Notes under the pieces: model-generated
What the model was told of the DNA's origin: nothing
The model's database searches: none
The model's input: only the letters and a program-made list of their open reading frames with translations
NCBI RefSeq assembly: GCF_007744255.1
Contig: NZ_CP036267.1
Location: 1,985,500-2,049,499 of the forward strand
Source of the DNA: Thalassoglobus polymorphus
Lineage (GTDB): Bacteria > Planctomycetota > Planctomycetia > Planctomycetales > Planctomycetaceae
Direction: 5' to 3'
Length of the DNA: 64,000 bases
Shown: one piece after another, positions 4,133 through 39,980 of the stretch
How positions within the stretch are numbered: the first letter of the stretch is position 1
How the letters are laid out: every line of letters begins with the position of its first letter
Made by a program: the position numbers and the translations under genes

Positions 4133-7100
4133 ATGCTTATCAGTACCTATCAGCGTAGATCCGTCCTCCTCGCATTTCTACTTTCGTTGACTACAACGAT
4201 TCAGGCGAATGACTGGCCGCAATGGCGTTTCGGTCCTGGGCATTCCGCATCATCGCCGGATTCATTGCCAGACCAATTGTCGCTGCAATGGACTCGCACC
4301 GATCTTCCAAGGAGGCAAGCCTGGGATGATCCACTGAATAATGATGTCATGCAGTACGATCGGATCTTTGAGCCGGTCGTCAAAGATGGTCGTATGTTCG
4401 TGCCGTACAACGATTCCGACAAAATCGTTGCAATCGATGTCGAGAGCGGTGATGAACTCTGGACGTTTTACACATCAGGTCCGATCCGCTTTGCACCAGT
4501 TGCCTGGCGAGATGTCGTCTTTTTCACAAGCGACGATGGTCATCTGTATTGTGTCTCTGCGATTAATGGTAGTGAAAAATGGAAATTCCGAGGTGGTCCA
4601 TCCGAGCGGAAAGTGATTGGGAATAGAAGAGTGATCTCCGCCTGGCCAGCGAGAGGCGGGCCTGTGGTCCACGAAGATTCAGTTTACTTCGCTGCCAGTA
4701 TCTGGCCGTTTATGGGAACTTTCATCTATTCATTGGACGCCGAGTCTGGGGCCGTACGCTGGGTCAACGACAGCACCGCTGCTCACTACATCAAACAACC
4801 GCATAGCGCGCCAGCTTTTGCTGGCGTGGCGCCCCAGGGAACAATGAGCGTCGTCGAAGAGACTCTTCTCGTTCCGGGAGGTCGGAGCGTTCCCGCTGCG
4901 CTTGATCGAAGGACTGGTGCGTTCAAGTACTTTGATCTGAATGCAGGTGGCAAAGGAAACGGTGGATCGTTTGTCATCGGTCGCGATGATGAATTCTATG
5001 TGCATACACGGGAAAGAGGCGTACGGTCCTACGATTTGAAGACAGGAAAGAAGACCGCGTTTCGAGTCACAGAACCTGTTCTCTCGTCAGACTTCGTCTA
5101 TACAGCTGATGGTACGAGCAAGGTAAAAGCCTTCGATGAGGCAAAAAAAGTTGTGTGGGAGTTGTCAGGCGTTGATGCTTCGGGAGATTTGATTCAATCA
5201 GGTGATCGACTTTACGCTGCCGGAGGCGGCAAACTTACAGCCATCCAGTTGAACAACGAGAACCGTGAGCCGGAAGTTGTCTGGACACAACCGATTGATG
5301 AACAAGTCGTAAGGCTTTTGGCTGCGAGTCAGCGTCTCTTCGCTGTGAATCTGAATGGTCAGATCATGTGCTTCGGAGAGGATGCAGGAGACGTCAAAAA
5401 AACGGAGAGAGCCGTCAAGCCATTGCCTTCAAATGAATCTTCAGACTTGACGAAGCGGTTGATAAAGCAATCCACGATGAACAGCGGGGTTGTTCTCTGG
5501 TACGGTCTGGAGAATGAGCAACTCTTGCAATCGGTCTTGCAAGAATCGGAATACCAGATTGTCCTTGTCCTCGAAGATCAACAACAGGTCGAACGCCTCA
5601 GAAGAGAGTTCGATGCTGCTGGCGTTTACGGAGAGCGCATCGCTGTGCATCACGGGACGATCGATTCGTTTCAGGCTCCACCTTACATTGCACCACTCGT
5701 CGTAATTGACGGGAACCAGGTGGAGGTTGTTAAGACGGACCAGGATCTCCTTCGCCAGGCGTATGAGTCAGTGAGACCATACGGCGGTTGCCTGGTGGCC
5801 ATTCATCCATCGTTGGGACAGACTCTCGCTGACGCATGCGAAGCGGCGAAACTCGAAAATGTCTCCGTGGAGGAATCTTCCCCCTTCATGGTTGCTCGCC
5901 GGGTTGGAGCGTTGACAGGGGCAGCGGACTGGACGCATCAATACGGAGACATCGCCAATACAGTCAAGTCGAATGACTCACGGGTCAAGCTTCCCTTGGG
6001 GTTGCTCTGGTTTGGTGGGAATTCAAACATGGACGTGTTGCCGCGACATAGTCACGCTCCACCGGAGCAAGTTGTGAGTGGGCGGCTTTACATCCAAGGT
6101 ATGAACTCGCTCAGTTGTCGTGACGTCTACACCGGCAGAGTGATATGGAAACGTGAATTTGAAGACTTGGGAACCTTCGACGTTTACTATGACTCAACAT
6201 ACAAAGACACACCGCTCGATACAGCTTACAACCAGGTTCATATTCCTGGGGCAAATGGACGGGGAACGAACTACGTCGCCACCGAAGAGGCGATCTATCT
6301 TGCAATCGGTGACTCTTGCCATGTACTCGATGTGGAAACTGGCGAAATGCTTTCTGAAATCACGCTTCCTCCAGCGAGAGATGGTCAGCAACATGAGTGG
6401 GGATTCATCGGGGTCTACGAAGATGTTTTATTCGGTGGAATTGGATTCGCAAACTATGGTGAACGACTGAGCCTTTCCTTCGAGGAGAGCGATAGTAAGT
6501 TGTCAAGAAATTCAAAAGGATTTGGTTCCAAAAGTCTGGATCGCTCTGCAAGCCAGGGACTTGTTGCCTTCAATCGCCACACCGGCGAACAGTTATGGAA
6601 AATCGAGGCGCGACACAGTTTCCTGCACAATGCGATCGTTGCAGGTGATGGCAAAGTCTTTTGTCTCGATAAGCTGCAAAAGCCAATCGAGGATAAACTG
6701 CGTCGCCGTGGGCGAACTCCTCCCGAGACCTATCGAATTATCGCAACCGATGTTCGCACCGGAAAAGAACTCTGGGAAGTGACTGAAAACATTTTTGGAA
6801 CATGGCTCGGATATTCCGAGAAACATCAACTCCTGTTGCAAGCCGGGGCAAAAGCGAGTGATCGTCTGAAGTCGGAAGTGGGCCAGGGAATGGCGGTCTA
6901 CCACGGAGAGGATGGTCAATTGAAGTGGTATGTTGCTGACCGAGCCTACGCCGGACCTTGTATTTTGCACAATGAAACGATTCTTACGAACGCCAATTCG
7001 TACCAACCTTCATCGGGGACGTTTAGCTTGCTGACTGGTGAACCTGAATTCATCGTCAATCCCATTACGCAGAAAGAGCAGGTTTGGCAAATCTGTCGTT

Positions 7101-8452
7101 CTTACGGATGCAACACGGTCATCGCGAGCGAAAATCTGCTGACCTTTCGCTCTGGTGCTGCTGGATACTACGACATGCAAACCATGAGTGGGACCGGGAA
7201 CTTAGGTGGTTTCAAATCTGGTTGCACTTCCAATCTCGTCGTCGCCAATGGCGTGTTGAACGCTCCGGATTATACCCGGACGTGCAGTTGCAGCTACCAA
7301 AATCAAACATCAGTAGCGCTCATTCATATGCCTGATATGGATATGTGGACGGTGAACCATACTGCGAAGTTCAGCAAGCCGGGCGATAGCATTGAACGAA
7401 TTGGCATTAATTTTGGTTCTCCCGGCGATCGCACCGATTCCAATGGGACGCTTTGGCTGGATTACCCTGTCGTTGGTGGTGAGTCAGCGAATATCGATGT
7501 TCAGGTGACTGGTGACGTCGAATACTATCACAATAATACACTCAAGTTTGATGGCCCTGCGACTCCATGGGTCGGCGCTTCAGGAGTTCTCAACGCCGAA
7601 ACAATTACGATTCCGTTGTCGATCAAAACCGATTCGGATGGACTCTCTTTTGCTGTCTCGAAGGCGAGTGACGATGCGGAAGAGGACCCCAGGGGAGATG
7701 TCAACCTCACAAGTAGCGATTTGGAACTCACTCTTGATAAGGAAACTCAGATCGTCGGTATTCGATTCGAAAACGTCTCCTTACCTCAATCCGTTTCCAT
7801 CGACAACGCATACATTCAGTTCACTTCTGACGAAACGAATAATGAAGAGACCAAACTGACGATTGGGATTGAAAATGTTGGCAACGCCAAGACATTTTTG
7901 GATCAGTCGAAGAATATCAGTCGACGTCAACTTCTCGAGAGTCAAGTTTCCTGGCAACCTGCACCATGGGATAAAGTCAATAGAGCACTCGAAGAACAAC
8001 GAACTCCGAACTTGGCTTCGATCTTAAGACAAGTGATTGCTCGACCAGACTGGAAGCAGGGAAATGCAGTCGCATTTGTCATTTCCGGTTCTGGAAAACG
8101 TGTCGCCAAGTCGTTTAGTGGCAACGGGAAAATGGCGGCTCGTCTTGTTGTGGAAACGAGTGATCCGCTGATGGCACAGGACTCGCATCCCACTCATCCC
8201 CATACCGTTCGACTTTACTTTGCTGAACCGGCAGAAACAGAAGTTGGTGAGCGTCTGTTCGGGGTTGAACTTAATGGGAAACTTGTCGAAGAACAATTCG
8301 ACATCGTTGCAACTGCTGGTCAGAAGCGATCGACTATTGTCCGTGAATATCGAGATGTCCCCATCGGACAAGCTTTGAAGATTCGCTTGCCGAATCATGT
8401 CGGGCAAGCAGTTTTGAGTGGAGTCGAAATCATTCGCCAGACCGCAGAATAA
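4133..8452 (+). CDS. giant secreted PQQ-like beta-propeller repeat protein
   Basis: 1439-aa ORF with an N-terminal signal peptide. Repeated PQQ/BamB-type motifs, for example DGHLYCVSAINGSEKWKF, DKIVAIDVESGDELWTF and GQIMCFGEDAG. Confidence 0.8.
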   Translation: MLISTYQRRSVLLAFLLSLTTTIQANDWPQWRFGPGHSASSPDSLPDQLSLQWTRTDLPRRQAWDDPLNNDVMQYDRIFEPVVKDGRMFVPYNDSDKIVAIDVESGDELWTFYTSGPIRFAPVAWRDVVFFTSDDGHLYCVSAINGSEKWKFRGGPSERKVIGNRRVISAWPARGGPVVHEDSVYFAASIWPFMGTFIYSLDAESGAVRWVNDSTAAHYIKQPHSAPAFAGVAPQGTMSVVEETLLVPGGRSVPAALDRRTGAFKYFDLNAGGKGNGGSFVIGRDDEFYVHTRERGVRSYDLKTGKKTAFRVTEPVLSSDFVYTADGTSKVKAFDEAKKVVWELSGVDASGDLIQSGDRLYAAGGGKLTAIQLNNENREPEVVWTQPIDEQVVRLLAASQRLFAVNLNGQIMCFGEDAGDVKKTERAVKPLPSNESSDLTKRLIKQSTMNSGVVLWYGLENEQLLQSVLQESEYQIVLVLEDQQQVERLRREFDAAGVYGERIAVHHGTIDSFQAPPYIAPLVVIDGNQVEVVKTDQDLLRQAYESVRPYGGCLVAIHPSLGQTLADACEAAKLENVSVEESSPFMVARRVGALTGAADWTHQYGDIANTVKSNDSRVKLPLGLLWFGGNSNMDVLPRHSHAPPEQVVSGRLYIQGMNSLSCRDVYTGRVIWKREFEDLGTFDVYYDSTYKDTPLDTAYNQVHIPGANGRGTNYVATEEAIYLAIGDSCHVLDVETGEMLSEITLPPARDGQQHEWGFIGVYEDVLFGGIGFANYGERLSLSFEESDSKLSRNSKGFGSKSLDRSASQGLVAFNRHTGEQLWKIEARHSFLHNAIVAGDGKVFCLDKLQKPIEDKLRRRGRTPPETYRIIATDVRTGKELWEVTENIFGTWLGYSEKHQLLLQAGAKASDRLKSEVGQGMAVYHGEDGQLKWYVADRAYAGPCILHNETILTNANSYQPSSGTFSLLTGEPEFIVNPITQKEQVWQICRSYGCNTVIASENLLTFRSGAAGYYDMQTMSGTGNLGGFKSGCTSNLVVANGVLNAPDYTRTCSCSYQNQTSVALIHMPDMDMWTVNHTAKFSKPGDSIERIGINFGSPGDRTDSNGTLWLDYPVVGGESANIDVQVTGDVEYYHNNTLKFDGPATPWVGASGVLNAETITIPLSIKTDSDGLSFAVSKASDDAEEDPRGDVNLTSSDLELTLDKETQIVGIRFENVSLPQSVSIDNAYIQFTSDETNNEETKLTIGIENVGNAKTFLDQSKNISRRQLLESQVSWQPAPWDKVNRALEEQRTPNLASILRQVIARPDWKQGNAVAFVISGSGKRVAKSFSGNGKMAARLVVETSDPLMAQDSHPTHPHTVRLYFAEPAETEVGERLFGVELNGKLVEEQFDIVATAGQKRSTIVREYRDVPIGQALKIRLPNHVGQAVLSGVEIIRQTAE

Positions 8453-22902: not shown

Positions 22903-23080
22903 AGCACTTTTGAAAGATGTCCGCGAATAGTCTCGTGGAGATGGGTGATTCATCACATAGAAAGTCAGTCTTCACAGAGTTTGTTTTCACTGAGACGACA
23001 AGCATTGAAAATGCTTGACTTGGGTCTGCTCTGAGAGCAGACCGATTTCATCTTCACATGATCTCGGGGAAGGAGTCCCC

Positions 23081-25318
23081 ATGTCCGAACGAATGGAATC
23101 GTTCCCCATGAATTCTACTCAGAACTCTGACCGGCTTGAACAAGCCGGTCAGATTCTTTCTCATTTGCAGGCTCAACTCTCTGAGCTTGATCGCCGTGAG
23201 CAAAATCTGAATCAGCAAATGTCTGTGCTGATGGAACAACAACGCTCGACGCAGCAAAGCCAGGCAGTTGCGGAACGCAAGGCGAACGAATTGCGACAGG
23301 AACTTCTCGAACGCGAGCAAAAAGTTTCGGCAATCGAGAAAGAGGTCAACGAGCGTCGAACCGCAGCTGAACAACAAGAGGAGTCTGTTCGAAAGAAAGC
23401 AGACGCTCTGGAGTCTCAAAGAGCTCAGTTTGAACGCGAAATGCAGAAGAAGAGAGATGCCTTCGCTGCTGAGTGTCGCGAGAAACAAATTCGTCAACAG
23501 GCGGAACTTGCTAAAGAGTTGGAAGCATCTCGCAAGACGTTTGAAGAGGAATGCAAACAGCGCGAATCGACACTCGACGAACTGATTCGAGAACACGAAC
23601 AAGAATTCGCGGAAAAATCAGAGCGGTTCGAGAGCGAAAAAACGCGGCATCGGCAAAATGTCGAGGATTGGGCGAAGGAAAAAGTTCTCGAAAAGCAAAG
23701 ACTCCAACTCGAACGGCAAGCAAAACTGGAGCAGTTGGAAGCGGACTTCAACAACGAAGTGGCTGAGCATCAAGCGAAGATGTTACAAGAACGACATCAG
23801 CTCGATGAAGAAATTCGTTTGCATCAGCAGTCTGTCGAAGAATGGGAGACCCGACAGAAGGCCGAGAAAGAGGCCTTCGAAACTGAGATGCTGAGTCGCA
23901 CTCAGACATTCGAAACCGAGATGCTGGCGCGCACTCAGGCGTTCGAGCAGGAATCTCTTGAAAAGCAGACTCAATTCGAAGCCGAAGTTCAACGGCAACA
24001 AGAAGAAATCAAAACAGCTCGTCAAGCGTTCGAAGGGGAACAGCTGAGCCATCTCGAACAGGTAGAAGCCTGGGAACTCCAACAGGCAGCGGAAGAGAAG
24101 AAGCTCAAGGAGCAACTGAGAACTGAACGAGAAAATTTTGACGCACAATTAAAGCTGGAGAAAGAAACCTTCAATGAAGAATGTCGTGTTCTGGAAGAAG
24201 AGTTCTCACAGAAAGTTCAGATTGAGAAAGAAAATCTTCTCGAAGAACGGCGACGTCTGAAAGAAGAACTCTCTAAAGAGCTTTCCGAAGAAGCAGCTGC
24301 TTTGAAGGAAGCAAGGCGTCAACTTGAACTGGATCAGCGAGAGCAAAATCGACTGAATGAAGAATGGTCCAGTCAGCGAACAACTGAGCGTTCTCGACTA
24401 CTCGAAGAGCTTGAAGATGTGAAAAAGGAGAAGCTCGCTGCGCTCGATTTGCGTGAGAAGAATCTTCAGCGACGCGAGATCGATTTCGAGAAGCGAACTC
24501 AACTTCATGAAAGACACCTCGATCGTGTCCGGAATGATCTCAATGCAGAGTCAGCAGATTTAGAAAAGCAGCGTCAGAAGCAAAGGTTGTGGAAAGAGGA
24601 AGTTGAACGTGGGATTCGCTTACGGCTCACTCATATGAAACGTTTCCGTGACCTCGTTGGAAAGCGAGAGGACTGCCTGGAAGAAGAACAGAATCTGTTT
24701 GCGGAAACTCGTCGGACTACCGAACGTGACCTTGCTCGCTCGAAGGAACAATTTCTGGAAGAACGTCAACTGTGGTTGCAGCAACGTGCTTTGACACAAG
24801 AGCGGCTTCAGAATCAGGAGAAACGTCTCGACGAAGAGTATGCCTCACTTGTTGAGTCTCACAAACAGGTTGAAGCGCTCAGCGATGAACTGGAAGATTC
24901 ACTTCAAGAGACTTCAAAAACACCTAGCAACCAACCGGTTCAGGCATCGCGGCATCTGAATGGTTTGCTGGCAATCTTAGGGCGGCAGCGCCGTGAGGTG
25001 GAGCAGTCAATTCAACGTCTTCAAGAACGACTCATTGAGATGCGATCAGAAGGTGCCGAACTCTCTTCCTGGCTTGCTGATCAAGATCAGGTTGTCGCTG
25101 AGCGAGAACTTTCGCATCAAGAGAATCTGGAATCACTTTCAACTCGGGAGCAGGAATTCTCCGCGATTCGTGATCAATGGAACGTTGATCGACTTCAGGC
25201 GGAACATATCATTCGAGATTTGGTCACTCAATTGGAAGTGGCCCTTGATCAAATCGCGCGTTTGCAATCAGAACAAGATAAGGATGACGGATTCAGCTCG
25301 ATTTCACAGGCAGCTTAA
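23081..25318 (+). CDS. long coiled-coil protein (E/Q/R/K-rich, about 745 aa)
   Basis: Start at MSERMES, preceded by GGAAGGAG. Almost entirely heptad-like low-complexity sequence with internal repeats (FETEMLSRTQTFETEMLARTQAFEQE). Many spurious antisense ORFs overlap it. Confidence 0.75.
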   Translation: MSERMESFPMNSTQNSDRLEQAGQILSHLQAQLSELDRREQNLNQQMSVLMEQQRSTQQSQAVAERKANELRQELLEREQKVSAIEKEVNERRTAAEQQEESVRKKADALESQRAQFEREMQKKRDAFAAECREKQIRQQAELAKELEASRKTFEEECKQRESTLDELIREHEQEFAEKSERFESEKTRHRQNVEDWAKEKVLEKQRLQLERQAKLEQLEADFNNEVAEHQAKMLQERHQLDEEIRLHQQSVEEWETRQKAEKEAFETEMLSRTQTFETEMLARTQAFEQESLEKQTQFEAEVQRQQEEIKTARQAFEGEQLSHLEQVEAWELQQAAEEKKLKEQLRTERENFDAQLKLEKETFNEECRVLEEEFSQKVQIEKENLLEERRRLKEELSKELSEEAAALKEARRQLELDQREQNRLNEEWSSQRTTERSRLLEELEDVKKEKLAALDLREKNLQRREIDFEKRTQLHERHLDRVRNDLNAESADLEKQRQKQRLWKEEVERGIRLRLTHMKRFRDLVGKREDCLEEEQNLFAETRRTTERDLARSKEQFLEERQLWLQQRALTQERLQNQEKRLDEEYASLVESHKQVEALSDELEDSLQETSKTPSNQPVQASRHLNGLLAILGRQRREVEQSIQRLQERLIEMRSEGAELSSWLADQDQVVAERELSHQENLESLSTREQEFSAIRDQWNVDRLQAEHIIRDLVTQLEVALDQIARLQSEQDKDDGFSSISQAA

Positions 25319-25326
25319 ATGAGTCG

Positions 25327-28300
25327 TCAATCTCGATCCTGTGCTGCTTCGAGTTTATTGAGTAAGCGTTGATAGTTGCTCAAGCACTCCTCAATTTTGG
25401 GCTGCAGGTTCGAAATTTGTTGGTGTTGACTCATCGAGAGTTCTGTCAGCGGTTTGAGCCATTGCTGCATGAGTTCGAACTGAGACTCCAGAACTCCGTA
25501 AACCGTTTTCGGCAAACGATTGACGATTGTAATGCGCTCGTCTGACTTCGTGTTTTCGCCCTCTTCTTCGTCTACGATCTTTGGTCTGTTCTGATCCGAG
25601 GTGCTTCTCGGCTCTTCTGATCGCGCCGAATCAGGAGCAGTGGTGGTCGGAAATGTATCCGGCCATTTCATTTCAAGTGGCGGGACGCTCACATTGATGG
25701 GACGGTTCGAAAGTCGAGCAATTTGTTCCAGTCCGTCTGCCAGTTGTAAGGACATTGCACGAAGTTCTTCACGTAGGACATCCTCGTCAGGGGTGTCGCT
25801 CTGAGAATCTGACTTCGCTGAGAGGGTGGTTGCTCCCTCGTTGACTGCTTTACGAATTGAATCGAGACCATCGCTGAATGTCGTGAGTGTAGCGATCACT
25901 TGACCGACTTTGTCGTCTGATCCGATACCCCGCATTTTGATGTTCTGCTTGAACGTCCGTTTGATGTCGTCCCAACGTTCTTGCTCGCCTGCGGTGAGTG
26001 TTCCTGTCAATTCCTTAAACTTCAACAGGTTGGCTTCTGTTCCGGAGGTCAGTGTCTGAGCATCGTTCTGGTAGCTACTCTGGATCAGCGACTCGATCTC
26101 GTCGCCATTCATGACCGGCAGCACTTTCTCTGCGATACGGTTCATATTTCGATAAGAACCTTGCAGGAGAAATGGTGGCTCGGTGCGGTAATCATCATGC
26201 TGAGCCGCTGAGGTGATGTACTCCTGATTCACCCGCAGAACAACATCGCGGACTCGCATCAGTTTCATCATTGTGTCGACGAAATCGTTCAGCTCTTCCA
26301 TCGAGTAGTTGGCTTCGAAGTCGATTCCCTCAGAGGGAGCTGCGTCCCCACGCAGGGTTCGCTCCGCCATTTTTACAACGGCATACACATCCTTTTGAGA
26401 ACGAGATGCAAGTTTCCCCAGAACGGAATTCGAAGTGAGTGCGTTTTCGATATAGCTCAGTTCAAAGGCATCAGCAGTGTCGCCGATAATTTCACCGAGG
26501 TTGTAGATGTCGGCCCGATTGCTGAGCATGTCCGGGATCTGGAATTTCTCGCCGCTCTCCGTATACGGGTTTCCCGCCATCACAACGGCAACTTTTTTCC
26601 CCCGGAAATCATACGTCTGTGTTTTGCCTTTATAGACACCCTCAATTTTTCGTTGAGCATCGCACAAGCTGATAAACTTTTGCAGGAACTCGGTATGACA
26701 GTGCTGAATGTCGTCGAGATAGATGAGAACGTTGTCACCCATCTCGAAGGCCAGATTCAACTTCTCGACCTCTTCTCGTGCCCCAGCATTTGGAGCAGCT
26801 GCCGGATCGAGTGACGTCACCTCATGTCCCAATGCAGGGCCGTTGACCTTCATGAAGATGATGCCCAGACGATTGGCGATGTACTCCATCAGTGTTGTTT
26901 TTCCGTACCCAGGGGGAGAGATTAACAACAATAGACCTTGGCGATCGGTCCGTTTCCCTTCTCCAGTTGTCCCGATTTGTTTCGCGAGGTTATCCCCGAC
27001 TAACGGCAGATAGACCTGGTCGATCAATTGGTTGCGCACAAACGATGTGAGGACGCGAGGTTGGAATTCCGTGAGCTTCATCGCGTCTCGGTGTTCATCA
27101 ACCAGCTGAGATTTCAACTCATGATAGCGTTTGAAGCGAGGGATGGTCTCGCGTTCAAAAGTGCTCAAGCGATCCAGAAAGTGGTTAAATCGTAACTCAT
27201 AATTTCCGGACTGAATGACAGGGTGTGTCCCGATCATCTTGGTGAGTTTACGTTCCATCTGAGCTGCCACGACAGCCCGTTCATCGACTTGACCATCCAT
27301 GATCAGCTTGGCGATTTCTTCACGATAGTCGAAAACTTCCTCTCCGTTTCCGTAGTTCAGCAGAAAAGCTGTGGTCCAGTCACGTGCAAGTTCGAAAGAT
27401 GCCAGCGTATCGCGCTGAACCGCTTTCATCGCTTTCGTGAAACGTTCCTGCGCATCCAATCGTTTTAAGTGATCATGGAACTCACGAAACAGATCGGCTG
27501 CTGTTTGCGACACAACAAACTGGTTTCCGCGTACTCTGCGTGAATCATCGGTCAGTTCATCAAACAGATACTCAGCAGCTTCATGAACTCGCCCAGACGG
27601 GACTTCGGATGTTCCGTAGAATTCACTTTCTTCGATAAACTCGAGCAGCATCTCGCGAAGATCCGCAAGATACTCTTGTTGTTGATCCGTGCCTGGGAAG
27701 AATTGCGAGATCGTCCCGAAACCGGTTAGAACCTGCTCTTTGAGCTTTTTCGTTTTCGAATCTCCAAAGTTCCACCAGAATAAATTTGCCAAAACGCGGC
27801 TTTGTGAAGAGTACCGCAACAGTCCACAGGCGTTATCAATTTCAAGGAGTGCGTGAAGGATCTTGACGGCATCTTGATCGTGCACCCCTTTCGAGTACCC
27901 TTCCTGATAACGTGGTCCCATGAACTTCTGAACTTCGCTGAGAAGATCAACTTCGTTCATCAGCTGTTTCGCGGACTGCGGCGACGATTGGTCTTCGTAA
28001 GGATTCCACTGTCCGTTTCGTGCGGCCTGTAACATTGTGTAGGCCAGGAATTCAGCCCGGTAGACATCCTTGTTCTCGCTGACAACTTCCATCGTCCAGA
28101 CTGATTGTGTAGAGTTCAGCTCTTCGCTGTTCACCGGTTCGTAGAAGTCTGTCCCTGTCAAATGGTAATTGAGTTCCCCATCGCGAAGGACGGTCGTCAG
28201 GTCGAGGACCTGCGTGTTGACCGAGAAGCGGTGGTTGCCGAATCGGATGACGTGATCGCCATCTTCATACAGTTCCTTCTTGTCTTTCAGTTGCCGGACT

Positions 28301-30804
28301 GCATCTTCGCGAATTGTTTTCAGCCGCGACTGGATATCGTCAACCTTGACGCTGTCTCCCAAGCCTTCCAGATCCGAGATGATATTGCGAACCTTGTCGA
28401 TCATCAGGTCGGAGGCGAAATATCCATGGATATCACTGATCTCCTGGAAGGATTCGATGCGATTCTTCACACCTTTCAGGATACGATCAGCAGCATCGGC
28501 AAGTGCATTGGCCCGTTTGTTTCTCTTCTCGACAAGTTGCATTCGCCGTGAACCAAACGCGCCAGCAACTTCTTCTCGTTTGTCAGCAAGCTGGACGATG
28601 AACTCATCAAACTCGGCAAATTTTCCCTCGAGTTCCTCAAGCTGAACCATTAACTTGGTGAGGTATTCTTCACACTTTTCGGGGGAGTCGCAAACATCGA
28701 GGTAGTTGACAACCGACTGGTTCATCAACTTCAACTGACTCGAAAACTCCGCGGAGCCTTCTACGGATGCCAGTTCCTGAATCTTTCGTTTCAGCGACGC
28801 CCGAGCTGCATTGACGTGCGAGAAGATTCCAGAAATGTTGTCGATGATCGTCGTACGTTGCGTGGCGTCATCGATTTTGAGATTGCTGACAATTTCGATC
28901 AGCATTTCTAATTCGTGCGACGACTCTGCAATCTTCTCTTCGACCTGTTTCGCATCAGCAACCTTGTTGAGATCGTCAATCCCCGCTTGTTCAATCGCGA
29001 CAGCATCGGCATAGGGCTGTAATGCGTCGTCGTTTAACAAAAACTCAACACATCGATGCGAAAGCTGTTCCGCCTGTTCTGCAACTTCTGTTTCCAGCTG
29101 CTCAATCAGTTCCGTGTCGGCATATCGTAAGTCGCGCAAGCCGATAATCTCGCCACGAACACGTCGCAGCCCTGCCAGGGATTTTACGAAGGAGTCGATG
29201 TTGTCAAATCGTCGCCGACCGACTTCATTCAACAATTCACGAGTTTCGCCAGCGACCTGCTGAGTCTGCTCGCGAGTGTTTTGTCGGACACGAACAACTT
29301 TCTCGAACTCATCAACCGCCGATGTCGCTGCGACTTTGATTTGTTGTAACGGTTCACCAAGGTTGGCGGCTTCGGCGTTGTTGATCCAAAAGTAACTGTC
29401 GAGAATATCGCCGGCGTACTTGACCAGATCGACGTACAGGTCTGAGTAGCTGTCTTCTTTCTCGATAAGATTCAAGATCTCGTGACACTCCGCCATTCCG
29501 CGAACGATGTCTCGATTGCCGATCTTGTACAGATAGGAATCTGTGTTCTCAAAAGTTTCGTAATCCTCTCCAACGTACGGAGTTTGCCAGACCTGAACCG
29601 CGTGGTGCTTTTGTGGCTCACCATGAGATTTGAAGAGGATCGTTTCGCCGCCACGGAACATCGTAAAACCGTTACAGATGACCGGAGTGTCGACAACTTG
29701 CTCAATGAGATTGTAACCGAGTAAAACGTACGCACCTTGGACCGGTTGGTAAAAAACATACAGCGTATCCTCGCCATTCGGGGAAGAGACGCGTCGGTCG
29801 AAAATCAATCCTTGAATGCTGGTGTCAAACGTTTTCCGTTCACCACTTTGCAGATAGTACCCGTTGGAAAAAATCAGCCCATGATCATCTGGCAGCAAGA
29901 CGCATGCGTCAGCGATTGAATCGACGCGGCTCGCTTTTTGAATCTTTTCATTGAAGACGATGTAGCGCCAATCCTGCTCCTGGTAAGGCCTGATTTTGAG
30001 CAGAATCGTGTGACCAACCAATGCGTAGAAAATGTCCGCATCGTCGAGCGTCTGGTCCGCATTCTCGACAGGTTCCTCATAGATCCCTGCTCCCGATTCC
30101 GTATTATTCTCAACCTTAATGGTCAGGTCACCGCCGACGGTCTCAACGAAAATTCGGTCATCAATCGAGATATGCGGATGCTCCCCATGTCGCTGCATGT
30201 CTCGCGTGGTCTTCTGCCATTCGAATTCGTGCTGAGCCGGAAAACGAACTTCGTGGTCGCTGCGATTATCGAGATACCGCAGCGTGCTCCCTTCAACCAG
30301 CCACTTAAAAGATTTGATGTCGGTCGGACTTTTCCCAACCTGAAAGACCATATAAAGATGAACACCACGTTTGTAAAACTTCGCGAATGTGGCGCTCTTG
30401 TAATATCGATAGACATCCTGAAAGTCTTTTTCGAACGTCGCATTTTGGAGGAGATCTAAAGGCTCCGGGCTGAACGTTTTGGTCTCATTGTCGAACGAGT
30501 ACACCGCAAACACATCTGCAACATTTCGTTCGGTACGAAGTCCAAACTGGACATTGTATCCGAATAAAAACTGATCCCCAACCGCCACCATGTCGCGCGG
30601 GACACAGTTGTGCTCGGTTGTGATTCTCTCAGTGTTCAGGAGCTTTAGATCGATCGAACCGAAAACTTCTTTGCGGTTCTCATTCAGTTGATCCAAGCGA
30701 CTCCGCAACTCCTCCCCGTGCGACCGCAGCCGATTCCGCAGGATCTCATAGGTCCCGGATTCAAGTTGCGTGGCAGCTTCAGGTTGTTGTGGAGAAGAGT
30801 CCAT
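25327..30804 (-). CDS. giant (1825 aa) protein with one AAA+ ATPase module; function unknown; third gene of the flotillin operon
   Basis: Uninterrupted 5.5-kb ORF. Walker A LLLLISPPGYGKTTLMEY (coding nt about 26899-26907), Walker B VLIYLDDIQH, sensor-1-like VVMAGNP, and Arg residues downstream. The rest is alpha-helical and acidic with no recognisable domain. Confidence 0.9.
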   Translation of the reverse strand: MDSSPQQPEAATQLESGTYEILRNRLRSHGEELRSRLDQLNENRKEVFGSIDLKLLNTERITTEHNCVPRDMVAVGDQFLFGYNVQFGLRTERNVADVFAVYSFDNETKTFSPEPLDLLQNATFEKDFQDVYRYYKSATFAKFYKRGVHLYMVFQVGKSPTDIKSFKWLVEGSTLRYLDNRSDHEVRFPAQHEFEWQKTTRDMQRHGEHPHISIDDRIFVETVGGDLTIKVENNTESGAGIYEEPVENADQTLDDADIFYALVGHTILLKIRPYQEQDWRYIVFNEKIQKASRVDSIADACVLLPDDHGLIFSNGYYLQSGERKTFDTSIQGLIFDRRVSSPNGEDTLYVFYQPVQGAYVLLGYNLIEQVVDTPVICNGFTMFRGGETILFKSHGEPQKHHAVQVWQTPYVGEDYETFENTDSYLYKIGNRDIVRGMAECHEILNLIEKEDSYSDLYVDLVKYAGDILDSYFWINNAEAANLGEPLQQIKVAATSAVDEFEKVVRVRQNTREQTQQVAGETRELLNEVGRRRFDNIDSFVKSLAGLRRVRGEIIGLRDLRYADTELIEQLETEVAEQAEQLSHRCVEFLLNDDALQPYADAVAIEQAGIDDLNKVADAKQVEEKIAESSHELEMLIEIVSNLKIDDATQRTTIIDNISGIFSHVNAARASLKRKIQELASVEGSAEFSSQLKLMNQSVVNYLDVCDSPEKCEEYLTKLMVQLEELEGKFAEFDEFIVQLADKREEVAGAFGSRRMQLVEKRNKRANALADAADRILKGVKNRIESFQEISDIHGYFASDLMIDKVRNIISDLEGLGDSVKVDDIQSRLKTIREDAVRQLKDKKELYEDGDHVIRFGNHRFSVNTQVLDLTTVLRDGELNYHLTGTDFYEPVNSEELNSTQSVWTMEVVSENKDVYRAEFLAYTMLQAARNGQWNPYEDQSSPQSAKQLMNEVDLLSEVQKFMGPRYQEGYSKGVHDQDAVKILHALLEIDNACGLLRYSSQSRVLANLFWWNFGDSKTKKLKEQVLTGFGTISQFFPGTDQQQEYLADLREMLLEFIEESEFYGTSEVPSGRVHEAAEYLFDELTDDSRRVRGNQFVVSQTAADLFREFHDHLKRLDAQERFTKAMKAVQRDTLASFELARDWTTAFLLNYGNGEEVFDYREEIAKLIMDGQVDERAVVAAQMERKLTKMIGTHPVIQSGNYELRFNHFLDRLSTFERETIPRFKRYHELKSQLVDEHRDAMKLTEFQPRVLTSFVRNQLIDQVYLPLVGDNLAKQIGTTGEGKRTDRQGLLLLISPPGYGKTTLMEYIANRLGIIFMKVNGPALGHEVTSLDPAAAPNAGAREEVEKLNLAFEMGDNVLIYLDDIQHCHTEFLQKFISLCDAQRKIEGVYKGKTQTYDFRGKKVAVVMAGNPYTESGEKFQIPDMLSNRADIYNLGEIIGDTADAFELSYIENALTSNSVLGKLASRSQKDVYAVVKMAERTLRGDAAPSEGIDFEANYSMEELNDFVDTMMKLMRVRDVVLRVNQEYITSAAQHDDYRTEPPFLLQGSYRNMNRIAEKVLPVMNGDEIESLIQSSYQNDAQTLTSGTEANLLKFKELTGTLTAGEQERWDDIKRTFKQNIKMRGIGSDDKVGQVIATLTTFSDGLDSIRKAVNEGATTLSAKSDSQSDTPDEDVLREELRAMSLQLADGLEQIARLSNRPINVSVPPLEMKWPDTFPTTTAPDSARSEEPRSTSDQNRPKIVDEEEGENTKSDERITIVNRLPKTVYGVLESQFELMQQWLKPLTELSMSQHQQISNLQPKIEECLSNYQRLLNKLEAAQDRD

Positions 30805-30911
30805 TAATAATCAATATTGAAAACAGGGATTGAAGACGACTGTAAATAGAGAATGTTCTACGTGCCTACGAAATTCAGTAGTGGCGGCGATTTACTGAAT
30901 AATTCCTAAGG

Positions 30912-30940
30912 TTTTCCGGACACATCAAGTGTCCGGAAAA
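30912..30940. promoter_or_regulatory. Perfect 12-bp palindromic stem-loop in the flotillin-ATPase intergenic spacer
   Basis: TTTTCCGGACAC-ATCAA-GTGTCCGGAAAA. Begins 11 nt after the flotillin stop, within the 146-bp spacer. There is no U-tract on either strand. Confidence 0.5.
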
Positions 30941-30950
30941 CTCGCAGCGG

Positions 30951-33065
30951 TTATGCATTCCCTTCTTCACTTGCCAGAACCCCCAAGCCTAAGGTCGCGA
31001 CTTTCTTGTCCATGAGACCGGCGTTTTTGAAGTATTTCTGCAGCTTCTTTAAACCCGATGTTGTTTTTTCGTCGTCAGATTCAAGAAGCATCTTGCCGAG
31101 GACGGCGGAGACGCTGAGGTCTTTGACGTCTTCGAATGAAATTCCGAACTGGCTGGTGAATTTCAGCAGGTTTTCTTTGAAGTCACCGTCGGCATCTCCC
31201 ACGAAGAAAGTATTCTTGACGTCAGTGACGACCTCGGAATTGTTCACGTAGCGGTCAACAGCTTTCCCGGCCTGAATAGAACCGACGATCTTGTCGAAGA
31301 ACTCGGTTTCGCCACCGACAATGTCGATGCGGGCGTTGCCGAGTGCGGCTCCGACAATCTCGGATTGTTCGCGGGCGATCTCTGTTTGTGCGTTGATGGC
31401 TGCGATTTCGATGTCTTTGTCTTTGTTGAGTCGAAGTTTGAATTCTTCGTGCTCGCGTCCCACTCCATCGAAGAGCTTCATCGCTTCGGCTTTCTGCTCG
31501 ATGCCCTTTGCGTCGGCGTAGTACTTCTGTTCGATGACAGTCGCTTCGGCCATACCTTCTTTCTCGAGTGCTTCCGCCTTGGCCTTTTGACCTTTGGCTT
31601 CTGCAACAATTTTCTTCTCGATAACGTTGGCTTCGGCGGACCCTTCTTTCTCAATGGCTTCCGCACGGACGCTCATGACTTGAGCTTCAGCCAATCCCTC
31701 AGCGGCAACTTCCGCCTGGCGAGCTTCTGCGAGCATTTTCTTGGCTGCGGTTTCTTTCTCAGCTGCAGAGCGGGAAGCTTCCGCTTCGATGACCACTTTC
31801 TCTGCTTCGAACCCGGCTGCCTGTTTTTGGGCCTCGGCTGCTTTGATCTCTTTGACTAATGCTTCTTCGGCATCTCGTTCGGCATTGGTAATCGCAACTT
31901 TCTTGGATCGATCTGCAGTGGCGAATTCTTCTGTGTCAAAGATACGTTGTTGTTCTTCGACCACTGAGCGTTCGACAGCGACTCGCTCGCGGATCACATC
32001 TTGAATGTTTCGTTTCTCAATTTCGATGGCTTTCTCTTTTTCAATCTCCGCTAAGCCAACGATTCGTTCGCGTTCGGTCACTTCGAGCAAACGGTCTTTC
32101 TCAACCCGTTCAATTTCAACCGCTTCTGTTCGTTCTTTATTTTTCTGAGCGACAACAATTTGACGAAGTTTGTTTTCTTCAGCGACCTGCAATTCTTCTT
32201 CTGTCGCAATGCGAGCTGAGTCTGCTCGGAGCCGTTGTTCTTCCTGGACTTTGGCAGCTTCTGCATGCTCACGGGCAGAGATTTCAGCGATTTCACGTTT
32301 TTGCTTTTCGACCGCTTCAACGCGTTGCTTTTCAAGTTCCAGGATTGCTTCCTGAGCATCAACGTCCTGCTTCTTGATCGTCTTTTCTTTCTCACGCAGA
32401 ATCTCATTCGATTGAATATGTTCCTGAGCCGTGAGGTTGGTGATCTTCTTGATTCCCTCCGCGTCGAGGATGTTCATCTCGCTGAGATGCTCGATGGGGG
32501 TCTGTTCCAGAAAATCAATGGCACAGTCGTCGAGAATGTATCCGTTGAGATCAGTCCCGATGTGCTTCAGGATTTCTTCTTTGAACTGATCACGCTCGGT
32601 GTAAAGATCGACGAAGTCGAAATGTTTTCCGACAGTCTTGAGTGCTTCTGAAAACTTGGCATCAAAGAGTTCAACCAGTGCAGCTTTCTCTGAGGCACGC
32701 TTACAGCCAAGAGCCTGAGCCACCTGAAGAATGTCTTGTGACGTATTGTTCACACGGACGAAGAAGGCGACTTCGATATCTGCTCGGACGTTATCTTTGC
32801 AAATCAATCCGGAGACATCACGTCGTGAAATTTCGATTCGTTTGACCGAAAGATCCATGTGTTCGACACGGTGTGCGATGGGAATCACCCACATCCCGCC
32901 ACCCGAGACGACCCTCATGCCGCCCCAACCCGTTTTGACCAATGCCTCTTCTGGTCCCACCTTGCGGTAGAAGCGTGACATCGCAAAGAGAAAGCCGACG
33001 AAGATGAAACCGCAGGCAAAAGCTATCGGTACGAAAATTTCCCAAGGCATGTGATCGCCCTTCAT
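30951..33065 (-). CDS. flotillin-like SPFH/band-7 protein (YqiK-like) with long Ala/Glu-rich coiled-coil
   Basis: N-terminal TM hairpin, SPFH core (GGMRVVSGGGMWVIPIAHRVEHMDLSVKRIEISRRD...), then about 350 aa of EA-rich coiled-coil and a C-terminal domain, as in YqiK/FloT. Confidence 0.85.
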   Translation of the reverse strand: MKGDHMPWEIFVPIAFACGFIFVGFLFAMSRFYRKVGPEEALVKTGWGGMRVVSGGGMWVIPIAHRVEHMDLSVKRIEISRRDVSGLICKDNVRADIEVAFFVRVNNTSQDILQVAQALGCKRASEKAALVELFDAKFSEALKTVGKHFDFVDLYTERDQFKEEILKHIGTDLNGYILDDCAIDFLEQTPIEHLSEMNILDAEGIKKITNLTAQEHIQSNEILREKEKTIKKQDVDAQEAILELEKQRVEAVEKQKREIAEISAREHAEAAKVQEEQRLRADSARIATEEELQVAEENKLRQIVVAQKNKERTEAVEIERVEKDRLLEVTERERIVGLAEIEKEKAIEIEKRNIQDVIRERVAVERSVVEEQQRIFDTEEFATADRSKKVAITNAERDAEEALVKEIKAAEAQKQAAGFEAEKVVIEAEASRSAAEKETAAKKMLAEARQAEVAAEGLAEAQVMSVRAEAIEKEGSAEANVIEKKIVAEAKGQKAKAEALEKEGMAEATVIEQKYYADAKGIEQKAEAMKLFDGVGREHEEFKLRLNKDKDIEIAAINAQTEIAREQSEIVGAALGNARIDIVGGETEFFDKIVGSIQAGKAVDRYVNNSEVVTDVKNTFFVGDADGDFKENLLKFTSQFGISFEDVKDLSVSAVLGKMLLESDDEKTTSGLKKLQKYFKNAGLMDKKVATLGLGVLASEEGNA

Positions 33066-33108
33066 AAAGTGTCACTGTACGAGCGAAGCCGTACATCGGT
33101 TCATGGTG

Positions 33109-33732
33109 TTAAGCCAGGTGGTCACCTGTCTCTTTGACGTAATAAATTCCGGTATCAGGTGAGAAATCCACAATCTGGACAACCGCATCTTTTGGAATCG
33201 AGCCTTCAATTGTTCGGATATTCAACCGCAGTGGGGCTCCATCCTCGACATGACAGATTCCATTTCCGAACTTGGGCGTCACTTCACTGGTAATCACCGA
33301 ACATGTTCGCCCTAACATGTCCTGAACTGTGTTTGGCTCCTTGGATCGTAACTTGCCCCGCATTGGATTCGTCAGGATTTTCGCCGCGAGTATTCCAATT
33401 CCCAGGCTCCTCCCAATCGCAACAGCATTCTGTTGAAAAGTTGGATTGACCATGTCTCGATCGAACACCATCGTTACGACCCATGCAGCGAGTGCGACGA
33501 TTGACATCCACAACATGACCGGAACTTCACCAAGGTTCAGCCATTTTAACCCCAACATTCCCAGGTCAGTGACCGAGGCATCCATGTCCGGATCGAGATC
33601 CAGATCGAAATCGATTGCGTCCATGTCGATCCCTCCCAGTATGACGAGCAGCCAGTACGCGCATACGAGACAGAGCAGGATGCTGAAAGGCAGAACCGGC
33701 CACTGGAAGTAGGTTTCAACAATGTCAATCAT
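33109..33732 (-). CDS. NfeD-like membrane protein (YqiJ family) with C-terminal OB-fold
   Basis: 207 aa with two or three TM helices, an acidic DxD-rich loop, and a C-terminal NfeD-type beta-barrel (GRTCSVITSEVTPKFGNGICHVEDG...AVVQIVDF). Lies 43 bp upstream of the flotillin gene. GGAG RBS. Confidence 0.8.
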   Translation of the reverse strand: MIDIVETYFQWPVLPFSILLCLVCAYWLLVILGGIDMDAIDFDLDLDPDMDASVTDLGMLGLKWLNLGEVPVMLWMSIVALAAWVVTMVFDRDMVNPTFQQNAVAIGRSLGIGILAAKILTNPMRGKLRSKEPNTVQDMLGRTCSVITSEVTPKFGNGICHVEDGAPLRLNIRTIEGSIPKDAVVQIVDFSPDTGIYYVKETGDHLA

Positions 33733-33744
33733 GACTGAACTCCG

Positions 33745-33764
33745 ATGTTGCCATTATGCAACAT
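33745..33764. promoter_or_regulatory. Palindrome ATGTTGC-N6-GCAACAT in the 5' leader of the NfeD/flotillin operon
   Basis: Perfect 7-bp inverted repeat, 13-32 nt upstream of the NfeD start on the mRNA and immediately 5' of its GGAG RBS. Confidence 0.35.
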
Positions 33765-34268
33765 GAATGAGGGGCTTCATTGGGAAAACGCAGAATCGAA
33801 GAATTGGATCAAAGAAACCAGGGGGATTTCGGTCGGTTTTCGAATTCTAATGGCTCAACGGATTCTGCCGGCCGTTTTGACTCTACTGAATGAGCACTTT
33901 AATTCTGATATGTCAGCGAGGAGATCGGCCTGTTACGAGAGTCGGCGTCCGGTCCTGACGCTCATGCCATTCGTTCTGAGTGTAAGCAAAAGACTGCTGA
34001 CGGCGGTTCCCTGTGGTCGAAGCAGACGGTATCAACGGTTGTGCCGTAATTGTGGGGAGCTGACCTGTCCACTCGCCTATTGCAAGGCTCGTAACACAAT
34101 ACAGCATAACAGGTTGTGTAACTCGTTAGATTTTTCCTCTCGCTATTTCAGAACCGGACGTAAAATTCCCTGAGGACCGGGTCCTCAGAGCTTTGCACAG
34201 TCATCGTTTCTCTGGCAAGCTTCCTAAGTGAAGCCTTGCCACAAGTCATTGTGGTGAAGGGAAAAATC

Positions 34269-34718
34269 ATGGCGAGAAAAGACGCACTTTTGAAATTGCA
34301 TCATCGGTTAACGGAACAACGTGATGAGTTAAGACGCAAGCTGACTCACCAGATGGAATCGGTGGGCGAGCAACGTGGCCCGGGTGACTTGGGGGATCAA
34401 TCGACGATTGATGCTGATCAGGAACTTGGTTCACAACTGGCAGCTCTCGAAAGTCGAGAACTGTCTCGTATTGAAAATGCACTCGAAGCAATTCGGTCGG
34501 GAACCTATGGGAAGTGTGAACATTGTGAAAAGCCGATTCCAATCACTCGACTGAAAGCCTTGCCTCACACCTCTTGCTGTATTCAATGTCAGCGAGAGTA
34601 TGAAATGGTCGGGGGCTCCGAAAAGGAGGTCGACAACTGGGAATCAGCATGGGAGCATCTGGCTCGCGAGAATGATCGTGAATTAACAGTTCGAGATGTT
34701 AAGATGGATGCTCGGTAA
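34269..34718 (+). CDS. DksA/TraR family C4-type zinc-finger protein
   Basis: Coiled-coil N-region and C-terminal CEHC...(17 aa)...CCIQC zinc finger. Start taken at MARKDALLK. Divergent from the flotillin operon. Confidence 0.8.
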   Translation: MARKDALLKLHHRLTEQRDELRRKLTHQMESVGEQRGPGDLGDQSTIDADQELGSQLAALESRELSRIENALEAIRSGTYGKCEHCEKPIPITRLKALPHTSCCIQCQREYEMVGGSEKEVDNWESAWEHLARENDRELTVRDVKMDAR

Positions 34719-34776
34719 AAATCCGGAAGCCTTTCAATTGGAACAGGCTGTCGGTTGAACTTCTGACTGGAACGAG

Positions 34777-36258
<1,482 letters not shown>

Positions 36259-38798: not shown

Positions 38799-39980
38799 CT
38801 ACTGCTCACTTTTTTCCCGTAACGATACGATCACTTGCCGAGGCTCAATTTGCTCGACGCTCAATTCACTCGGGATATTCTTCAAGTTTGACTCGCTCTC
38901 CCATTGAGGAAAGCGAGTCCCTTTTGCGATAGGTTTCACTTCCAGTGAGACAACTGCCGAGGCAGGTTTCAAAAGGTTGAAGGCCGGCTCTGGGCCGGAG
39001 AGTGTTAGCTCGGCAAAAGTCGGTTTCGGTTCCGCAATCTCCCAACCTTCGGGGACATTTCGGTATTCGATGGGGATCACAAAAGTGCGCTGGATCGTGT
39101 CGGTGTTGTAGGCAAATGTGAACCATAGCATCGTTGCGGTGGCGATTGACACAAGCAGCGTCACCCCGTGGTAGCGTGGGCGTCTCTTCCCGCCAGCGAA
39201 ATGTCCATCTTTAAGAGATGCTCTTAATCGGTCAGCCAGTTGCGTTGGGTCAACGACTTGCATCTCACCATCTTTAGCAATCGTAATCGTTCCGCGTTCC
39301 TCGGAGACTGCCACTACCATTGCGTCACAGCATTCTGCAAGTCCTAAGGCTGCTGCATGTCGGGTGCCGCTGCCCTGCAGTTTCTCGACTTGCCTGGAAA
39401 GTGGAAGATGGACTCCAAGCGTCGCGATTCGTTCACGTTCAATCAGAACGGCACCGTCATGACCGGGAGATTTTGGGTGGAAGATGCTCAGCAAAAGTGG
39501 CAGACTGATTTTCGCGTCCACATCGACTCCGCCCTGAATGTGACGTCCCAGTGGGTCACGCATTGGGATGACGACCAAGGCTCCAATCCGCTGACGAGCC
39601 ATGAAGATCATCGCTTCGGTTAAAGTTCCTGTCAGATTCTCTGAGGGACCGCTGACCGAAGAACGTAAGAAAAACTGCGAGGCAGCCAGTTTTTCGAAAC
39701 CGTACCGAATGTCACTTTGAAAGATCACCACAAATGTGATCAGAATTGCGATGGAACCGTACTGGTACGCCAATGTCGTAAGGTAAAGGTCAAACCATTG
39801 AGCCAGTCCGAAGAGGACAACCAACCCGACAGCCACAATTCCCAATGACCGTGAGGCTTTTTGCCGCAACCAGATGATGACGACATACAACAGCATGGAA
39901 ACGATTGCGACATCGAGCAAGTCCGCGAATCGCACGCGTTCAAACAGTTCACGAACATATTGTGGCATCGAGTCTAACAT
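38799..39980 (-). CDS. cdaA: diadenylate cyclase CdaA fused to a YbbR/CdaR-like C-terminal domain
   Basis: Three N-terminal TM helices and a DAC domain with HDGAVLIERERI, GTRHAAALGLAE and VVAVSEERGTITIA (canonical DGA / RHR-like / SEETG motifs). An extra TM and about 150 aa of YbbR-like beta-rich sequence follow at the C-terminus. Confidence 0.85.
   Translation of the reverse strand: MLDSMPQYVRELFERVRFADLLDVAIVSMLLYVVIIWLRQKASRSLGIVAVGLVVLFGLAQWFDLYLTTLAYQYGSIAILITFVVIFQSDIRYGFEKLAASQFFLRSSVSGPSENLTGTLTEAMIFMARQRIGALVVIPMRDPLGRHIQGGVDVDAKISLPLLLSIFHPKSPGHDGAVLIERERIATLGVHLPLSRQVEKLQGSGTRHAAALGLAECCDAMVVAVSEERGTITIAKDGEMQVVDPTQLADRLRASLKDGHFAGGKRRPRYHGVTLLVSIATATMLWFTFAYNTDTIQRTFVIPIEYRNVPEGWEIAEPKPTFAELTLSGPEPAFNLLKPASAVVSLEVKPIAKGTRFPQWESESNLKNIPSELSVEQIEPRQVIVSLREKSEQ

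Follow-up and report, generated by a model that had tools for sequence, protein, structure and literature searches.

The window considered here is a 64,000-nucleotide stretch of the Thalassoglobus polymorphus chromosome (Planctomycetota; NCBI RefSeq assembly GCF_007744255.1, contig NZ_CP036267.1, positions 1,985,500 to 2,049,499 of the forward strand). On its minus strand it carries an operon-like unit of three genes, which encode an NfeD-like membrane protein, a flotillin-like protein, and a giant AAA+ ATPase of 1825 amino acids (aa). This three-gene order is maintained across at least seven phyla, and the window locus belongs, with near certainty, to a module that Ravi et al. 2024 (mSystems 9:e00847-23, PMC11237479; preprint 2020) have described. 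The module is thus one previously predicted in silico rather than a new one, and its ATPase belongs to a family already present in Pfam. The value of the window is that it offers a clean, minimal three-gene example, not that it reveals a new system.

The module could plausibly serve bacteria as a remodeller, powered by ATP, of assemblies of flotillin and PspA. It touches on what bacterial flotillins do and on the turnover of SPFH cages and of PspA polymers. Being present in at least 593 GTDB species and in seven or more phyla, it is a widespread candidate for a Vps4-like or turnover role. Among its hosts are cultivated genera such as Flavobacterium, Hymenobacter, and Gimesia, and some of these may be amenable to genetics.

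According to the list of open reading frames (ORFs), the three genes form a co-directional run, each beginning with ATG on the minus strand. The NfeD-like gene (33109..33732, 207 aa) is followed, after a spacer of 43 bp (33066..33108), by the flotillin-like gene (30951..33065, 704 aa) and then, after a spacer of 146 bp (30805..30950), by the ATPase gene (25327..30804, 1825 aa). No terminator-like hairpin is present within either spacer, and ORFs on the opposite strand flank the unit on both sides, at 23015-25318(+) and 33745-34173(+). The coordinates and spacers that the first-pass annotation had assigned to the three genes agree exactly with the ORF list. Its identification of the products as NfeD-like, flotillin, and AAA+ ATPase is borne out by the Pfam and profile matches given below; the operon-like organization that it proposed is likewise upheld by the spacing, the common strand, the lack of a terminator-like site, and the recurrence of the arrangement elsewhere.

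Conservation of the gene order

The ATPase has a large number of relatives, which make up at least 6505 database clusters when clustered at 90%. Searched by itself, the segment of residues 1-700 returned 1010 representatives (50% level, E-value up to 0.001), of which the full-length members are 1550-2040 aa long, and relatives are encoded by at least 593 stretches of the GTDB species set. For the analysis of gene order, the best 80 of these genome loci were taken, together with two metagenomic or genomic loci. Neighbors were called by tblastn with the window flotillin and NfeD-like proteins and by clustering of neighboring ORFs. Loci with at least 3.5 kb of DNA upstream of the ATPase gene were counted as informative (n=62).

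A flotillin orthologue, 37-68% identical to that of the window, lies directly upstream of the ATPase gene and on the same strand in 59 of the 62 informative loci, and an NfeD gene precedes the flotillin gene in at least 52 of them. The loci come from six phyla (Planctomycetota, Bacteroidota, Verrucomicrobiota, Desulfobacterota, Clostridia, and Kiritimatiellota), across which the ATPase is 47-58% identical. Recurrence of the arrangement at this frequency is far beyond chance. The far edge of the family was probed with a divergent relative (P0262), which is only 26% identical to the window ATPase over the N-terminal 700 residues. All four divergent loci found in this way, one of them from the actinomycete Natronoglycomyces albus, keep the order NfeD-flotillin-ATPase, with a gene for ~190-220 aa and a gene for ~650-680 aa preceding that of the ATPase; hidden Markov models (HMMs) of the NfeD-like and flotillin families recognize both products. 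Since even divergent members keep the same order, the linkage is a property of the whole ATPase family. The earlier suggestion of a functional tie between the ATPase and the NfeD-SPFH pair, which would have failed had the homologues of the giant protein not been syntenic with flotillin and NfeD genes elsewhere, is supported by these counts (59/62 and 4/4 loci).

The module also occurs in an extended form. In 15 loci of Bacteroidota, a CesT_Tir_1 gene (E-value ~1e-56) and a PspA_IM30 gene (E-value ~1e-41), both identified with Pfam, precede the NfeD-like gene, so that the full order is CesT_Tir_1-PspA-NfeD-flotillin-ATPase; PspA is thereby found just upstream in 15/62 informative loci. HMMs built from 16 PspA and 13 CesT neighbors found no such protein among the six-frame ORFs of the 64-kb window, which therefore carries the abbreviated form.

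Both forms have been reported. The first-pass annotation took the association of the giant ATPase with the NfeD-SPFH pair to be undescribed, but the comparative genomics of Ravi et al. 2024 had already recovered operons of the same three proteins, with or without the CesT/Tir-PspA pair, and had found the abbreviated, PspA-less operons to be "more widely distributed" (PMC11237479). Their example from the flavobacterium Dokdonia donghaensis (the neighborhood of ANH61663.1) reads CesT_Tir, YqiJ-YuaF, Band-7 plus coiled-coil plus flotillin, and then β-propeller plus coiled-coil plus AAA-ATPase (PMC11237479). From such in silico comparisons, these authors predicted a role in sub-membrane assembly and remodelling, going no further on mechanism than "assembly/membrane dynamics" (PMC11237479). 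The window contains a YqiJ/YuaF-type protein, a flotillin, and a β-propeller/coiled-coil AAA+ ATPase encoded side by side, and the three core architectures and their order are the same as in the published operons. It differs from them in lacking the CesT/Tir-PspA pair, the mark of the extended form, and in the ATPase, which in planctomycetes has a lineage-specific tail of ~175 residues.

A polytopic NfeD-like gene followed by a flotillin gene is also the arrangement of YqiJK in E. coli and of YuaF-FloT in B. subtilis. Neither of these pairs is known to be linked to a giant ATPase, and a nucleotide search of complete E. coli genomes with the operon gave no match. In addition, the window flotillin, at 704 aa, is longer than the YqiJK/FloT type, and it scores only 30.7 bits on the FloT model.

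The stretch between the flotillin and ATPase genes varies among lineages. In Planctomycetota it is only 30-300 bp long. In some Bacteroidota and Verrucomicrobiota, small genes are inserted there (L017:8490-9958, L053:7611-9970, L051:8307-9973, L025:9368-9997, and L028:5456-6370), which encode a DMP19-like DNA mimic, DUF3997, a DUF559 endonuclease-like protein, an IS200 Y1 transposase, and DUF3592 membrane proteins. A conserved fourth gene at this junction was considered and rejected, given the heterogeneity of the inserts in the two phyla; the site resembles a hot spot for insertions within an otherwise conserved operon. Ankyrin repeats appear near divergent relatives. At locus L083, the module is closely preceded by ankyrin-repeat genes (1-807 and 2416-3978) and is followed, ~6 kb downstream, by a PspA gene, while in another divergent relative (P0283, L086:3188-8818) ankyrin repeats are fused to the ATPase itself.

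The three proteins of the module

The 207-aa product is a polytopic, YqiJ/YuaF-type NfeD-like membrane protein. Its hydropathy, with hydrophobic segments at residues 10-40 and 65-91 and a weaker one at ~103-122, is compatible with two to three transmembrane segments, in line with the three of the YqiJ/YuaF type. The Pfam YqiJ_N model gives 21.3 bits, just below the cut-off of 23, and matches 9 of 21 NfeD-like orthologues, with a best E-value of 3.6e-08. When a profile of the family was compared with PDB, the sole match was weak (E-value 0.35), to the C-terminal domain of YuaF (2k14). The corresponding domain of the family is β-rich and contains a conserved GQ motif in the alignment. The Pfam model of the NfeD C-terminal domain, PF01957, an OB-like domain that binds the partner protein, does not match the window protein, and it matches only 1 of 21 orthologues (E-value 0.0049). 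The loop between the first and second transmembrane segments (residues 36-56, 33565-33627) consists of alternating aspartates, DMDAIDFDLDLDPDMDASVTD. The acidity of this loop is kept across phyla, with a length that ranges from ~15 to 60 residues, and it may be a cation- or polyamine-binding element.

The 704-aa flotillin-like protein has a single transmembrane helix, which hydropathy places at its N-terminus (residues 6-33). Next comes an SPFH domain that begins at about residue 35 (Pfam Band_7/SPFH, E-value 1.4e-10, 42 bits vs a cut-off of 23.6), followed by a coiled-coil region rich in Glu, Ala, and Lys (residues ~215-525) and by a C-terminal region (526-600) that is conserved in a profile of 59 orthologues. 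The FloT equivalog model NF058507 gives 30.7 bits over residues 36-415, far below its cut-off of 700; the protein is thus best described as flotillin-like, a member of a distinct, longer subfamily. Sequence and profile searches of PDB with this protein returned no significant match. Because a basic cluster (SRFYRK) comes directly after the transmembrane helix, the body of the protein, that is, the SPFH domain and the coiled coil, is predicted by the positive-inside rule to be cytoplasmic.

The 1825-aa ATPase lacks a transmembrane segment (maximum hydropathy 1.07). It had been described as having one AAA+ module and no other recognizable domain. The first part of this description stands, with Pfam AAA, AAA_22, and AAA_5 matching residues 1287-1417, but two further families are present: DUF3686 (PF12458) at residues 32-472 (E-value 2.5e-194, 646.4 bits vs a cut-off of 25) and DUF7902 (PF25472) at residues 593-677 (E-value 5.5e-28, 97.4 bits vs a cut-off of 26). 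Scans with Pfam, NCBIfam, and PADLOC models found no nuclease, peptidase, or VWA effector domain, as the first reading of the sequence had also concluded.

The protein was modelled with AlphaFold in two parts, residues 1-900 and 851-1825, with a mean predicted local distance difference test (pLDDT) score of 74 and 72, respectively. In the first model, a helix at the N-terminus (residues 16-48) leads into a β-propeller, located at ~70-380, whose blades are repeated β-hairpins spanning residues 71-378. Helix and propeller together account for DUF3686 (residues 32-472, 29389..30711 on the minus strand). Foldseek matches the propeller to prolyl oligopeptidase, Sec12, the WD40 domain of DCAF1, and the clathrin N-terminal domain, with a probability of up to 1.00 and an E-value of ~4e-4. 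The propeller is followed by an all-helical coiled coil or bundle (residues 480-845, and from 424 in the model; 28270..29367 on the minus strand) that includes DUF7902 and has a pLDDT mostly of 75-93. The next region (residues 851-1250, 27055..28254 on the minus strand) contains a small β domain at 851-890 and then a helical domain at ~915-1170, for which, at a pLDDT of ~90, fold searches gave no convincing structural match. The AAA+ module occupies residues 1285-1600 (26005..26952 on the minus strand). The C-terminal tail (residues 1650-1825, 25330..25857 on the minus strand) is partly disordered, with a pLDDT below 50 at 1697-1768, and ends in a long helix; it has an occupancy of 0.1-0.4 in the cross-phylum alignment and is conserved, in part, only among relatives from Planctomycetota.

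The AAA+ module is the most conserved part of the protein, with a column conservation of ~0.75 vs 0.3-0.5 elsewhere. Its motifs comprise a Walker A sequence, SPPGYGKTT (residues 1296-1304); a Walker B sequence, YLDDIQH (residues 1362-1368, 26701-26721 on the minus strand), in which Asp-Asp replaces the usual Asp-Glu; sensor 1, N1412 in the motif MAGNPY; a candidate arginine finger, R1430 in the motif NR(A/M)D; and a candidate sensor-2 motif, QGSYR (residues 1548-1552). These motifs are invariant or nearly so throughout the family, even in relatives at 26% N-terminal identity. Residues D1364, D1365, Q1367, and H1368 are invariant in 32 family members that range from 26% to 57% in N-terminal identity. 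The Walker A and B motifs, sensor 1, the arginine finger, and the fold matches together place the protein in the AAA+ superfamily, with the caveat of the unusual Walker B. The invariant Asp-Asp pair suggests a slow, regulated, or switch-like ATPase.

Within the superfamily, the best structural neighbors of the module are of the MoxR and HCLR types and include the unfoldases ClpA, ClpB/Skd3, and Lon. In the AlphaFold model, a β-hairpin before β4 (between α3 and β4, residues 1386-1399) occupies the position of the pre-sensor-1 hairpin. The classical AAA clade (p97, Vps4, NSF, and FtsH) is marked by the lack of such a hairpin and by a second region of homology with two arginines; sequence matches of the window ATPase to p97 are confined to the P-loop region, and the hairpin is itself modelled with moderate confidence. 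The clade assignment is tentative, given the moderate pLDDT of the AAA+ part (40-83). Sequence and profile searches of PDB gave matches only over ~40-80 residues around the P-loop, and since similarity is confined to this region, the module represents a divergent lineage with no close solved relative. MoxR-type ATPases such as NorQ and CbbQ resemble the window ATPase only in the generic AAA+ fold; no VWA partner gene accompanies the latter, and its multi-domain body is much larger.

Several relatives of the ATPase have unusual features. The closest relative among the matches listed is from Thalassoglobus sp. (Planctomycetota; P0001) and is 97% identical. A metagenomic relative of 1345 aa (P0128) contains an NfeD1b_N domain, which is ClpP-class protease-like, at 74-215, ahead of both DUF3686 (498-970) and DUF7902. 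This protein may be an NfeD-type/ATPase fusion or an artefact of gene calling. A fusion of flotillin to the ATPase was rejected in two cases. P0128 contains no flotillin part, while P0246, which has ~400 extra N-terminal residues including a stretch rich in Glu and Ala, has no SPFH match and is possibly a gene-calling artefact. A protein of 1711 aa in a eukaryotic gene set (P0079, eukprot g33011.t1) is 62% identical to the planctomycete ATPase and is likely to reflect bacterial contamination of the eukaryotic assembly. Pfam remarks that DUF3686 occurs in eukaryotes, a statement that may rest on cases such as this one.

Possible functions of the module

On balance, and by a modest degree, it is probable that, under membrane stress, the module uses ATP to remodel a flotillin assembly that faces the cytoplasm, along with PspA in those operons that include it, as judged from the sequences and the gene order. 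In such a process, an SPFH ring or cage, built from the flotillin together with its NfeD-like partner, would be attached to the membrane and face the cytoplasm. The β-propeller and helical regions of the soluble ATPase would serve for docking on this structure, and the AAA+ module for oligomerization; ATP would power the assembly, disassembly, or extraction of flotillin scaffold components. PspA polymers could be an additional client in those lineages whose operon includes CesT/Tir-PspA, and the physiological setting might be a response to membrane or envelope stress.

Several observations are in favor of this proposal. The flotillin is likely to be the core partner, being adjacent to the ATPase in 95% of loci vs 24% for PspA. 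The presence of CesT_Tir_1 and PspA_IM30 upstream in the 15 Bacteroidota loci favors the link with membrane stress, and the possible NfeD1b-DUF3686 fusion in P0128 is also in line with a joint function. The proposal agrees with the role that Ravi et al. 2024 predicted for the module. As precedents, there are solved structures of membrane-attached SPFH cages (eukaryotic flotillin, prohibitin, and HflK/C), and the partner of HflK/C is an AAA+ protease, FtsH.

The module can also be compared with better known partnerships. Both HflK/C-FtsH and prohibitin-m-AAA couple an SPFH scaffold, genetically or physically, to a membrane AAA+ ATPase. FtsH, however, is membrane-anchored, belongs to the classical AAA clade, and has a protease domain, whereas the window ATPase is soluble, protease-less, and has a predicted pre-sensor-1 β-hairpin. 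Furthermore, HflK/C face the periplasm, whereas the window flotillin is predicted to face the cytoplasm. With Vps4/ESCRT-III of archaea and eukaryotes, the module shares the genetic coupling of an AAA+ ATPase to a membrane-remodelling polymer, PspA being an ESCRT-III relative that is present in the extended form of the operon.

Other findings weigh against the remodelling proposal. The position of pore loop 1 (GPALGH, residues 1323-1328) has no aromatic residue, and Walker B contains DD in place of DE; consequently, a classical threading unfoldase is not assured. The AAA+ part of the model is only moderately confident (see above). Flotillin is absent upstream of the ATPase in three loci (L016, L026, and L038) despite ample upstream DNA, so the ATPase can occur unlinked. 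Finally, the literature on the ATPase family yields only an in silico description and no experimental study, and literature searches for DUF3686 and PF12458 found no papers.

A bolder version of this proposal would make the ATPase the missing ATP-driven remodeller of SPFH cages and, where co-encoded, of ESCRT-III-like PspA polymers, that is, a bacterial counterpart of Vps4/NSF with an independent origin in a non-classical lineage of AAA+ proteins. This idea is tentative and more doubtful than probable. If it is true, bacterial flotillin microdomains would gain an energy-dependent cycle of assembly and disassembly.

Alternatively, PspA may be the true substrate. The ATPase would then be a functional analogue of Vps4, with flotillin and NfeD serving as a mere membrane platform and with PspA encoded elsewhere in T. 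polymorphus. The sharing of an operon by the CesT_Tir_1, PspA, and module genes in 15 Bacteroidota loci and the PspA gene 6 kb downstream of the module at L083 speak for this explanation. A 2025 review assigns "undetermined roles" to the Band-7 partners of PspA and leaves such a role open, since in its words an ATPase of the Vps4 type "appears absent in bacteria". In B. subtilis, the SPFH protein YdjI is reported to be needed to localize PspA at the membrane. However, PspA is found in only 15 of the 62 informative loci vs 59 for flotillin, and the 64-kb window has neither a PspA nor a CesT gene. The ATPase also lacks an MIT-like domain, and its AAA+ fold is nearer to the MoxR and HCLR types than to Vps4. 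PspA as the sole substrate is, on this evidence, unlikely.

A role in quality control would also bring flotillin and an ATPase together. Here, a flotillin cage would corral membrane proteins, which the ATPase would unfold or extract for unlinked proteases, in the manner of HflK/C-FtsH and prohibitin-m-AAA. SPFH proteins are described as recurrently paired with AAA+ proteases (PMC13220708), the unfoldases ClpA, ClpB/Skd3, and Lon are among the nearest structural neighbors of the AAA+ module, and an HtrA-like protease is encoded nearby in the divergent direction (34777-36258). Yet this protease gene is not conserved among the other loci for which gene calls were listed; the ATPase has no protease domain, nor does the module include a conserved protease gene. 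The lack of an aromatic residue at the pore-loop position and the DD of Walker B also count against an unfoldase. Quality control of this kind is distinctly unlikely.

The first-pass annotation raised the possibility of a conflict or defense function. In such an anti-phage system, SPFH and NfeD would act as a membrane effector under the control of a large NTPase sensor. Large NTPases of several domains, in which propellers or repeats act as sensors, are common in conflict systems, a general resemblance that the window ATPase shares, and small genes for DUF559, Uma2, IS200, and DMP19 proteins lie beside or inside the module in some Bacteroidota. However, a scan against PADLOC-DB 2.0 gave no significant match for the ATPase, the best being to IetA (E-value 5e-4, over only 30 residues of the P-loop) and mad8 (E-value 0.0097), and none of any kind for the flotillin and the NfeD-like protein. 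The ATPase family has no relative in viral contigs. Unlike fast-evolving defense genes, the module is strongly conserved across phyla, as the identity of the ATPase (47-58%) illustrates. The inserted small genes are heterogeneous and fall outside the module, and the context in the window is ordinary chromosomal DNA. With PADLOC, viral contigs, and window context all failing to support it, a defense function is very improbable.

A function in DNA repair, which both Pfam, in its description of DUF3686, and NCBI, in the product names of P0001 and the ATPase family ("DNA repair ATPase"), attribute to the protein, is scarcely credible: weak matches to RuvB exist, but they extend over only 36-45 residues around the P-loop (E-value ~5e-4), Pfam finds no DNA-binding, nuclease, or helicase domain that would mark a DNA-repair family, the conserved neighbors are membrane proteins, and no paper mentioning the ATPase family was found. 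The name was probably inherited from old COG labels for coiled-coil ATPases. The present analysis thus corrects a misleading annotation.

Surroundings of the operon

On the downstream side, the ORF at 23015-25318(+) encodes 767 aa and runs toward the ATPase gene, the stop codons of the two being 8 bp apart; no Pfam family matches its product at an E-value of up to 0.001. On the upstream side, the ORF at 33745-34173(+), which would encode 142 aa and matches no Pfam family, begins at a distance of 12 bp from the NfeD-like start codon. The promoter and 5' region of the operon must fall inside this ORF, which may for that reason be spurious. A strong terminator-like hairpin is present on the minus strand at 34190-34168.

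Beyond this point, and divergent to the operon, the region 34236-36258(+) encodes a DksA/TraR-type zinc-finger protein of 160 aa and an HtrA-like protease of 493 aa with Trypsin_2 and PDZ domains (34777-36258(+)). These two neighbors lend the surroundings an envelope-stress flavor; neither is conserved among the other loci with listed gene calls. The wider window consists of ordinary chromosomal genes, including those for LptF/G, cytochromes, a P450, and an MMPL transporter. Two further genes in the window, both unrelated to the operon, encode a DAC-domain protein of 393 aa that is a candidate diadenylate cyclase (38799-39980(-)) and a protein of 1439 aa with PQQ/BamB-like β-propeller repeats and a C-terminal malectin domain (4133-8452(+)).

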